Virus record (IMG/VR): IMGVR_UViG_3300013383_000001 | Coordinates: 64,001 to 128,000 of that record | DNA from: a virus | Lineage: Duplodnaviria > Caudoviricetes | DNA length: 64,000 nucleotides | Direction: 5' to 3' (one strand) | Part shown: piece after piece, positions 30,801 through 33,800 of the stretch | How the letters are laid out: every line of letters begins with the position of its first letter | How positions within the stretch are numbered: the stretch's first letter is position 1 | Made by a program: the position numbers and the translations under genes | Notes under the pieces: generated by a model | The model's input: the letters and a program-made list of their open reading frames with translations, nothing else | Databases searched by the model: none | Told to the model about the DNA's origin: nothing

Positions 30801-33800
30801 TGTCTGAGTTGAAAAGAACTTTTAATTTTACAGAAGATCATTCCGATGATGCGTTTTGGTTGCCTTTAAGTGATTCTAATATTTATTAGTAGGCTGTTAT
30901 TGAATTTATATCATAGATTAATAAGAAATCTATTAAACGTAAGTATCCAGGATCTGGATGTGTAATGGTTCCTGGATATAATACAATGATGACTTATAAA
31001 TATGATGGTAAAATCGCTATGTTCTAGGATGTTTTCAATGAAGCTAGAAGCTCTGCATAGTCTTTTGATGAATCTAAAGAGAGCTATCCATCATATCAAA
31101 TAAGAGTAGTACAGGAGTTTTTAAAAGGGAAACAAGAAGCACTATATCAAAATGCTCCTGCAGTAGATACTACGGTGGATACTGAATTAACTTCTGCAAT
31201 ATCTAGATTTATACCTACAGATATTGTAGATATTGTAGATGCAAATAATAATCATATTTGTACAATCACTCTCGATTCAATTTATGATTATTATACTTTT
31301 AAAGGATATAAAAAAGGATAGAATTGGGATAAGAAAACTATCTTTGATTTTATATTACAAAAGAATAGGGAGCAACATCCTGAAAGTACATTAGAAACAC
31401 TCCCCACTAATTTAAAATTTGTAACTAATGTTACGAATCCAAGAAACTTAGCACCTGCTAGAATTACATTCTCTTATACAGACGTAAATGGAAGACAAGT
31501 TGATACAAATGTATTTGACACTGAAGAGGTTCGTAATAGCTTCTTATACGGTCAATCTCCTGAGCGTAGACAATCTATATAGCAAATGTTTGATAACCTG
31601 GATAAGGGACTTTATCACGAACATAAGGTATTTAATTTGCAAAATAAAGCGGCAGAACTTATTGTTTCTAATATGTATGCATCCAAATTTGGAACACAAA
31701 ATGCTTCAATGAAGGAAATATTAGAACAAGGTCCTAGCTACTTTGCTTAGTCTATTCCAAATCTTATTTAGGAATCTAATTATGCTATGGCATTTATAAA
31801 TTTCTCTGGAGAAAATACTTATATTTCTTTCTCTAAACCTCGTGTTAATGATGAGGATGCAAGATCTGTAAAAGAAATTTCTTGGGGAAATACTAAAACT
31901 ATTAATGGAAATGTTTTTTGTACAGATAAAAACGGAACTCCGTTATTTCAAATAGGATATTTATTACAACGTCCTGACTTAGATTTAAATGGTGATGAGA
32001 TTGTAAATCATGATACAGGAGAAGTAATAAGAGATAAAAAATATAAAAAATATAAAGGAGGGGTGTATGAGTATATTTAGTTTGCAACTAAATATAAAGC
32101 AGTACAATCTAGAAGTTCTAAAATTAGTGGAAATACAATAATACACATTGATGTTAATGCTATTAATGCATTTAAAACAGCTTAGAATCAAGCCTATAAA
32201 GCTCCTTCTTTTACGTCTACTTTAATTAGTAAACTATTTACAGATAGTGGTGCAGCTACTGTAATGCTAAATGAAAATTTAAATATTAAGTCTGCTCAAA
32301 TACTTAAACACTTACAACCATTTTTTAAGTCAGCTAATATAGCAAATGGGGATTTATCAAGAGCTATTGATTGTATTAACAACGATGCTGTTATTAATAA
32401 GAAAAAATCTGATTTATTAAATGATAATAGGTATAATGAGTATTTAACTAGTACTTGGGATAGACTTGCTAAGGAGGTGTTTGCATCTTTTGAAAGATCA
32501 AGATATTATATAGCATCTCGTATTCCTGCCCAAACGCTTCAATCATTTATGCAAATGGAAGCAGTAGCATTTACAGATACTACAAAAAATGTAGCGTATG
32601 TTAGTCACTGGCAAACTTGGTAAACTTGTAGCCAAGTATAAACAGGGTGAATTGCTGGAAACTCCAGAGGTGGACAATCAGCAGCTTAGCTAAACTTAGG
32701 ATAAGGGAGTTTAGAAAGTTCAACGACTAGAAGAATGAGCCTAACAATAATTTCTTCCACGAGTGCCCTGCATAGAAGATATAGTCTAAACTGTATATAA
32801 CCTAATAAAGAAAATACAGAATTAATGGATAAAGAGCCATTAAATAAATTGTACAAGGATCTGACTATAAACAATATTGTAGTCATTAAATCTCGTAAAG
32901 TGCATAGAACTCTTAAATAAAGACAATATGCAGCTTATCTTTTATAAGAAAGTTCACAGACTATTAGAAATAAATAATTAAAATAAAAACGAGACACTTT
33001 TAATAAGTGATGATATAGTCGAAAATGGATATTGATAAAGCATATATAATGGGTGTATCTTTTAGTGACAATGGTAAGTATATAGGATGGTCGCCTTTAT
33101 TCGACGTCACTTCTTATAAAACACTGAAAGCATCTGAAAAACTATTAGTTCCTTCTGGACAATCATTTAAACTTGCTTCTAAGGAAGAGGCACAAATTGA
33201 CGCGCAATCTGAATTTCAAGCAATAGAAAATGCAGAAAAAGCACTTGCTGAAAATGATACCGAAGAAAATAGAATTAATAAAATAAATGCGTATGTAGCA
33301 TTACTTGAAAAGTTAGAAAACATAAGAAATAAGAAAGGGACAAATAGTGCTTATTTATATGCTGGTGATGTATAGAGTGCACATGAAATATTGAGAACAT
33401 TAAATTCGCACTCATTCTATTTAAGAACAGTTCGTAACACAGAAGAAATTCTTAAAAATTCAGTATAGTATTATATATCTGAAATTATTCAGAATCTTAG
33501 AAATATGGATATGGCATACTCTCCTATTTCTATGGATGCTATGCAGAAGGGTGCAGAAAAAGAAACAAAGGTAATGTCTCTTATGAATCCTCTTACTAAA
33601 TATGCAATGCAGATTGAAAATATGACTGGTAAAGATTGTATTGGTATATCTGCAGTTGGTGAGAAAGCATTTTTTGCACTAAGTTACTATTGGAATGAAG
33701 GTATTAGATCTGGAAATGAAAAGTGGGAAAATGATTTAAAATTTAGAAAAGAATACACAAGACTTTCTCAATCTATATCAGAAACTGAATTGCAAAACAT

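Follow-up and report, generated by a model that had tools for sequence, protein, structure and literature searches.

A 159-nt Group I Intron Without P2 and P9 at the DxDxD Motif of a crAss-like Phage RNA Polymerase

Results

Introns in the Host Gene

The window, i.e., the whole 64,000-nt stretch of DNA analyzed, corresponds to bases 64,001–128,000 of a virus record that is complete at 166,364 nt and carries terminal repeats. The phage was found in many samples, its genome is complete, and in the gene studied here TAG is read through as glutamine. The genome size of 166 kb, the reading of TAG as glutamine and the intron load are consistent with membership in the Zeta group of crAss-like phages. 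The following features were located in the gene (here and below, a slash in an amino acid motif marks the insertion point of an intron):

32622–32851, + strand: intron A, 230 nt, TW/LQ site, has P9 (RF00028 match; absent in L120 and L121)
32852–32868, + strand: micro-exon of 17 nt separating introns A and B; the P1 5′ strand, ending in the splice-site U, makes up its last 7 nt (spliced product reads WQTWLQGSDYDIDK)
32869–33027, + strand: intron B, ORF-less group I intron, 159 nt (RF00028 match, splice-restored motif, intronless alleles L132–L134)
33028–33034, + strand: start of the 3′ exon (Asp-Ile-Asp), P10 partner (intronless alleles)
34231–35582, + strand: intron 3, SAATD/NAKE site (ORF deleted in L121; intron absent in L120)
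34344–35447, + strand: HTH-LAGLIDADG_2 ORF in intron 3, intact

Intron A, the 17-nt exon and intron B stand in tandem, and removal of both introns yields WQTWLQGSDYDIDKAY. A similar arrangement is seen in contig L126, where a homolog of intron A (positions 829–2205, approximate; TW/LQ site) with a 371-aa HTH-containing ORF ahead of its core likewise precedes a micro-exon and then another intron.

Searches of PDB, PHROG, Pfam and NCBIfam with single sequences did not identify the polymerase; only a profile built from 44 intronless homologs (~3,000–3,700 aa) succeeded, matching PDB 6VR4, the RNA polymerase of crAss-like phage phi14:2, across the sequence GSDFDIDK (E 4e-5). The G-S-D-x-D-x-D motif is invariant in 44/44 homologs and aligns with GSDFDIDK of 6VR4. 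Based on this match and the invariant motif, the host gene is identified as the crAss-like virion RNA polymerase, whose single, very large chain carries a DxDxD motif, and the intron B site as its metal-binding motif. Intron B interrupts the motif as GSDY/DIDK, which bears out an earlier sequence-only reading of this DNA that placed the intron in an essential catalytic motif.

The Rfam model RF00028 matches positions 32859–33028 with 32.7 bits (E 1.6e-6), short of its gathering score of 50 bits, so introns of this type fall under the Rfam cut-off. Both junctions are fixed by intronless alleles L132–L134, which read QGSDYDIDKAY. Among all G's in 33010–33080, only G33027 restores D-Y-D-I-D; alternative 3′ splice sites were rejected, since each breaks the motif. 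The boundaries and the group I assignment given in the sequence-only reading are thus correct, and its caveat that the true 3′ splice site might differ falls away. The same is true of its other caveat, misassembly of a longer intron: intron B is base-for-base identical in nine other assemblies produced by three methods (SPAdes, MEGAHIT and Logan), some with SNPs elsewhere in the gene, which makes an assembly deletion very unlikely. Among the known copies of this phage, which are nearly clonal, there is no selection signal.

The reading frame of the 3′ exon extends back through the last 18 nt of intron B (33010–33027), where two ATGs occur. Gene callers therefore start a false protein, MIQSKMDIDK, in the tail, and the tail can be traced across assemblies; the protein called from it (P0013) is present on 24 contigs. 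In unspliced RNA, a stop codon lies 7 codons into intron B. Given this stop and the presence of a complete phage in many samples, intron B is presumably spliced out.

Secondary Structure of Intron B

The remaining elements of intron B were assigned as follows:

32872–32885, + strand: internal guide, P10 5′ strand (32872–78) and P1 3′ strand (32879–85) (family alignment, fold)
32886–32890, + strand: J1/3 linker, 5 nt, no P2 (too short for P2, as in each of the 48 introns compared)
32891–32953, + strand: P3 5′ strand (32891–96), J3/4, P4 (32901–06/32927–32), 4-bp P5 stub, P6/P6a
32952–32963, + strand: R element, J6/7 and P7 5′ strand, with guanosine-site G32959 and bulged A32958 (RF00028 alignment)
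32964–32988, + strand: P7.1/P7.2 vestige, an A/T linker and perhaps a P7.1 of 3 bp capped by GAAA, whose pair probability is low
32989–33021, + strand: P3 3′ strand (32989–94), P8 (32995–33009), J8/7 (33010–15), P7 3′ strand (33016–21)
33022–33027, + strand: 5-nt tether AAAAT and ωG; P9 absent

As can be seen, the 159 nucleotides contain a complete group I core, P3–P8, with P, Q, R and S elements. P1 (32862–68/32879–85) carries the U32868·G32879 pair at the splice site, and all seven pairs of P10 can form between 32872–78 in the P1 loop and the 3′ exon (33028–34). The guanosine site is canonical, with the G32959–C33020 pair of P7 following bulged A32958, and G33027 is the terminal ωG. In the unconstrained fold, P1, P3, P4, P5 and P8 have pair probabilities of ~0.7–1.0, P6a also dominates and P6 is weakly populated (0.2); the intron strand folds better than shuffled sequences (z −2.4). 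Irregular features of the core include a J3/4 of AAG instead of AAT/AAC and an A·A mismatch as the last P3 pair. The G+C content is 24.5%, and neither tetraloop strut (L2-P8 or L9-P5) is present.

As described in the sequence-only reading, P1 is followed after 5 nt by P3 with no P2 between them, and P8 is formed by CACTT/AAGTG. The same reading had placed GAAAAT between P7 and the terminal G. The AAAAT part stands, but the first G (G33021) belongs to P7, where it pairs with C32957, a pair that covaries as C-G/T-A across the family; since G33021 is the last base of P7, only five bases separate P7 from ωG. No P9 can form in this tail or with the 3′ exon adjoining P7, which upholds the claim that P9 is absent. 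At most one P9.0 pair, A33022–U33026, can form, and it is kept in all three P9-less introns described below.

Reduction Series at the DY/DID Site

A pattern scan with follow-ups retrieved 48 distinct introns at exactly the DY/DID site, and four more distinct ones were added later. P1 is paired in 48/48 introns compared and P2 has no room in 48/48, so its absence, which had been singled out as special to intron B, is real but is no special feature; P2-less group I introns are, moreover, common (PMC1995217). In 44 of the 48, the P5 region is 96–101 nt long (P5abc), a P2-less, complex-P5 arrangement like that of subgroups IB4/IC1, and is combined with structured P7.1/P7.2, a subgroup IA feature, often with a LAGLIDADG ORF there. 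A 29–30-nt tail with P9.0 and a P9 hairpin is present in 45/48.

A short P5 (19–20 nt; 20 nt in intron B) was found in the window, L121, L120, L070 and L181, and P9 is missing only within this short-P5 subset, namely, in the window, L121 and L120, whose tails including ωG are 6, 6 and 9 nt, respectively. In place of the clear P7.1/P7.2 of full-size relatives, intron B has between P7 and P3 an A/T remnant of 24 nt that includes a weak hairpin of 3 bp. The 285-nt intron of L070 has no P5abc and keeps an all-A/T P9. The 179-nt intron of L181/L182 (5 contigs) has no P5abc and a 6-bp P9, in which an 11-nt deletion gives the tail of L120 (168 nt, no P9). The sizes at this one site thus run from ~1,080 nt (full size with ORF) through ~300 nt (291–363 nt, ORF-less) to 285, 179, 168 and 159 nt; the related short introns that the sequence-only reading had proposed to look for at the same site do exist. 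Judged from this comparison, the absence of P2 is an ancestral trait of the family, and the losses of P5abc, P7.2 and P9 are derived and stepwise. Because of its descent from P9-bearing introns at the same site, we file intron B as a variant and not as a canonical group I member. The sequence-only reading had missed this natural reduction series, as well as the intact P10 and the disappearance of the ~80-nt P5abc and P7.2.

Phylogenetic tests were run on 120 columns (introns) and on short protein stretches (host gene), with long-branch rows left out of the protein test. On the first intron-core tree a single P9 loss was not rejected (p-AU 0.27); with L181 added, a single clade of P9-less introns was rejected on the intron tree (p-AU 0.03), where L120 groups with L181 (100/100), and also on the host-protein tree (p-AU 8e-5). 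P9 was therefore lost at least twice at the DY/DID site. A single origin of the P5abc loss was not rejected (p-AU 0.43).

Several variants of the site were recorded. The introns of L181/L182 (8737–8915) and L120 form a second shrinking lineage, in which P4 has come by convergence to resemble that of other phage introns (TGCTGG/TCAGCA). A 325-nt family member (L180, 8818–9142) has GAATA instead of GACTA as the P7 5′ strand, creating a mismatch beside the guanosine site. A different group I intron lies one codon upstream (D/YDID) in L122 and L126 (approximately 2218–2476 and 2222–2467, respectively); in L126 its 3′ exon is preceded by G, in L122 apparently by A, a possible ωA. The 26-nt pattern matches (L001 and the like) were discarded as unrelated sequences that are not introns, and so were seven of the eight metagenome matches. 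INPHARED contained no homologous locus, a single-sequence search for related loci gave no match, and a second scan of viral sequences for short tails was negative.

Signs of Function

In the two P9-less lineages, ten pairs of P1, P3, P4 and P7 have changed and nine of these have kept pairing, in six cases with both strands changed (null P ~0.002). P4 of intron B has three changed pairs, all still paired. Over 155 nt, a single substitution and two indels in loops separate the cores of the window and L121 introns; their host proteins are 69% identical and 6/32 flanking four-fold sites differ. This near identity, which extends to the A/T linker, could reflect selection or recent recombination.

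The sequence-only reading had suggested that intron B depends on the peripheral helices of the adjacent intron or on the LAGLIDADG protein of intron 3. Both suggestions are contradicted by relatives: L121 has a near-identical P9-less core with no intron A and with an intron 3 whose ORF is deleted, and L120 has its P9-less intron with neither intron A nor intron 3. Help in cis from these neighbors is therefore not required, and the comparison shows intron B to be independent of them. It is possible that an endonuclease elsewhere in the genomes of these two relatives, represented by contigs of 30 and 11 kb, acts as a helper.

Other Shrunken Introns in These Phages

A family of introns at a D/DYW site in the capsid gene, consisting of G000:C1:48199-49460 (L179), which belongs to the window genome, and eight further copies (L170–L177), has tails of 5–14 nt in 9/9 copies seen (the pattern allowed tails of up to 30 nt), no P2 and a tiny P5. 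The copy in the window genome combines a 5-nt tail with a 10-bp P10. A core without P2 and P9 is thus a stable form that recurs in these phages. Within the capsid intron lies a GIY-YIG-like ORF of 362 aa, open in 6/6 copies read and assigned by motif alone, with no PHROG or NCBIfam match. The aligned catalytic Glu is replaced in G000, L170/L174 and L173 and kept in L172 and L177; because it is lost in three lineages yet kept in another, we regard this ORF as a weak maturase lead.

In a portal-like gene of the window genome (LQD/RYD site), a 176-nt ORF-less group I intron (G000:C1:24771-24946) has no P2 and a 17-nt tail with a vestigial P9, at most a 4-bp A/T hairpin. Elsewhere in this genome, a group I intron with an HNH ORF (G000:C1:160700-161600, minus strand) ends in a tRNA-like 3′ half. 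In the genome that holds L070, the capsid gene region (L141; G001:C1:50300-54100) contains a cluster of at least six short group I introns.

Discussion

Proposed Splicing Pathway and Alternatives

From the retained core we infer that intron B splices by means of its own catalytic elements, and it is very probably a working P9-less intron. It descends from a mobile, P2-less group I family at the DY/DID site of Zeta-like crAss RNA polymerases, and comparison of relatives shows that, after loss of the LAGLIDADG ORF, P5abc, P7.2 and finally P9 were shed while the catalytic core was kept. During splicing, an external G bound at G32959–C33020 would attack the U·G pair of P1; ωG, tethered by 5 nt and by no more than one P9.0 pair, would then enter the same G site, and the 7-bp P10 would align the 3′ exon so that ligation restores GSDYDIDK. 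General RNA-binding or chaperone proteins of the host or phage probably aid folding in the cell, since the L2-P8 and L9-P5 struts and P5abc are missing and G+C is low; host chaperones are known to aid phage group I introns, e.g., those of T4 (PMC3984707). We give this complete scheme, two-step splicing by the intron's own core with general protein help, about an even chance.

The strongest competitor is a fully autonomous minimal ribozyme, in which the 159-nt RNA folds and splices alone at physiological Mg2+, the core with P1 and P10 being enough. The correct helices dominate the unconstrained fold, little sequence is left to misfold, and repeated losses of P9 have occurred in several genomes and at two unrelated sites. 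Against this stand the lack of any peripheral strut in so A/T-rich an RNA and the case of the Azoarcus intron, which is G+C-rich and keeps both tetraloop contacts. An engineered Tetrahymena ribozyme consisting of P1–P8 and P9.0 completes both steps, with P9.0 and P10 each dispensable singly, so P9-less constructs can splice; these constructs, however, keep P2 and P5abc and were run at 36–56 mM Mg2+ (PMC11417360). P9 has, moreover, been listed as mandatory, and its absence from Prasinoderma intron Pr.rnl.1 was taken to imply accessory factors (PMC3873408). We rate full autonomy as possible but less likely than not, and give the same rating to the corresponding reading of accurate protein-free self-splicing at moderate Mg2+, which would make intron B a natural bare-core ribozyme without P2, P5abc, P7.2 and P9.

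A dedicated phage maturase acting in trans, such as the GIY-YIG-like protein of the capsid intron, which apparently lacks the catalytic Glu, would fit the open ORF with its replaced Glu, the shrinkage of several introns of the window genome and the nuclease-derived cofactors known for bI3 (PMC2813881). We consider it improbable, since the introns of L172 and L177 are just as P9-less and yet retain the Glu, in G003 the capsid intron occurs together with a full-size RNA polymerase intron, and the protein was assigned by motif only. That intron B is dead or mis-assembled, or that the gene is expressed by another route, is less probable still: an in-frame ATG at 33025–27 overlaps ωG, and gene callers start a protein there, but this codon is CTG in L121 and not conserved, and restart at it would split the DxDxD loop in two, whereas the nine identical assemblies and the compensatory changes in the core speak against an artifact or a decayed intron. 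Completion of intron B by the peripheral helices of intron A, which lies 17 nt upstream and has P9, or by the intact LAGLIDADG ORF of intron 3 is the least probable explanation of all, scarcely credible in view of L120 and L121.

Comparison with Known Introns

To our knowledge, the smallest well-studied group I intron is ~205 nt long. The G+C-rich Azoarcus pre-tRNA-Ile intron (IC3, ~205 nt) has a compact ORF-less core without P5abc; P2, P9 and two GNRA tetraloop contacts are retained. Intron B is likewise compact, ORF-less and devoid of P5abc; it is shorter, as the sequence-only reading had implied, by ~45 nt, and differs in lacking P2, P9 and both tetraloop contacts and in its low G+C content.

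P9 has been called mandatory for group I introns, and the mitochondrial intron Pr.rnl.1 of Prasinoderma (IB4) has too few 3′ nucleotides for P9, with same-site relatives that have it (PMC3873408). Pr.rnl.1 was the only natural P9-less precedent found in a literature search that covered few subscription journals, and others may exist. A natural precedent thus exists, and the absence of P9 in intron B is not the first case. Both introns are natural, P9-less and have P9-bearing relatives at the same site. Pr.rnl.1, however, lies in rRNA and is trans-spliced in two pieces, with a possible third (PMC3873408), whereas the 159 nt of intron B are contiguous within a phage mRNA, and its relatives form a graded series.

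The full-size ancestors of intron B resemble rRNA introns L1917 and L1931 (IB4/IC1-like), which have no P2 and a complex P5, and also the L2593 and Twort introns, which bear P7.1/P7.2 (PMC1995217). The full-size DY/DID family combines the complex P5 with P7.1/P7.2, and the 159-nt form has lost both. Natural shrinkage of group I introns is also seen in the SSU rDNA of Phialophora and lichens, where degenerate introns of 56–81 nt retain P1, P7 and P10, as does intron B, but have no standard core helices (PMC3160393), in contrast to the complete P3–P8 core kept here. Introns are also reported in a Staphylococcus jumbo phage preprint, whose intron passages give no sizes or structures (10.1101/2020.12.14.422802).

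Implications for crAss-like Phages

In the RNA polymerases of Zeta-like crAss phages, stops and frameshifts inside DxDxD have been noted and, in the passages concerned, left unexplained (Yutin et al., 2021, PMC7886860); introns at the DxDxD site account for some of these motif breaks. The Zeta introns in that report are described, in its intron passages, as found via endonuclease domains, with no RNA structures given. Since intron B is ORF-less and under the Rfam cut-off, an endonuclease-based approach would miss it.

The DY/DID introns form a natural series at one essential site, from full size to bare core, with P9 lost at least twice, and they make both the minimal group I ribozyme and the question of what replaces the struts directly testable on short RNAs. 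If protein-free splicing were true, P9 would be proven not mandatory in nature, and the ribozyme would be ~45 nt smaller than the Azoarcus model. An autonomous intron B would provide a compact mini-ribozyme scaffold for structure work and RNA circularization; a protein-dependent one would point to an unknown splicing helper in abundant gut phages.
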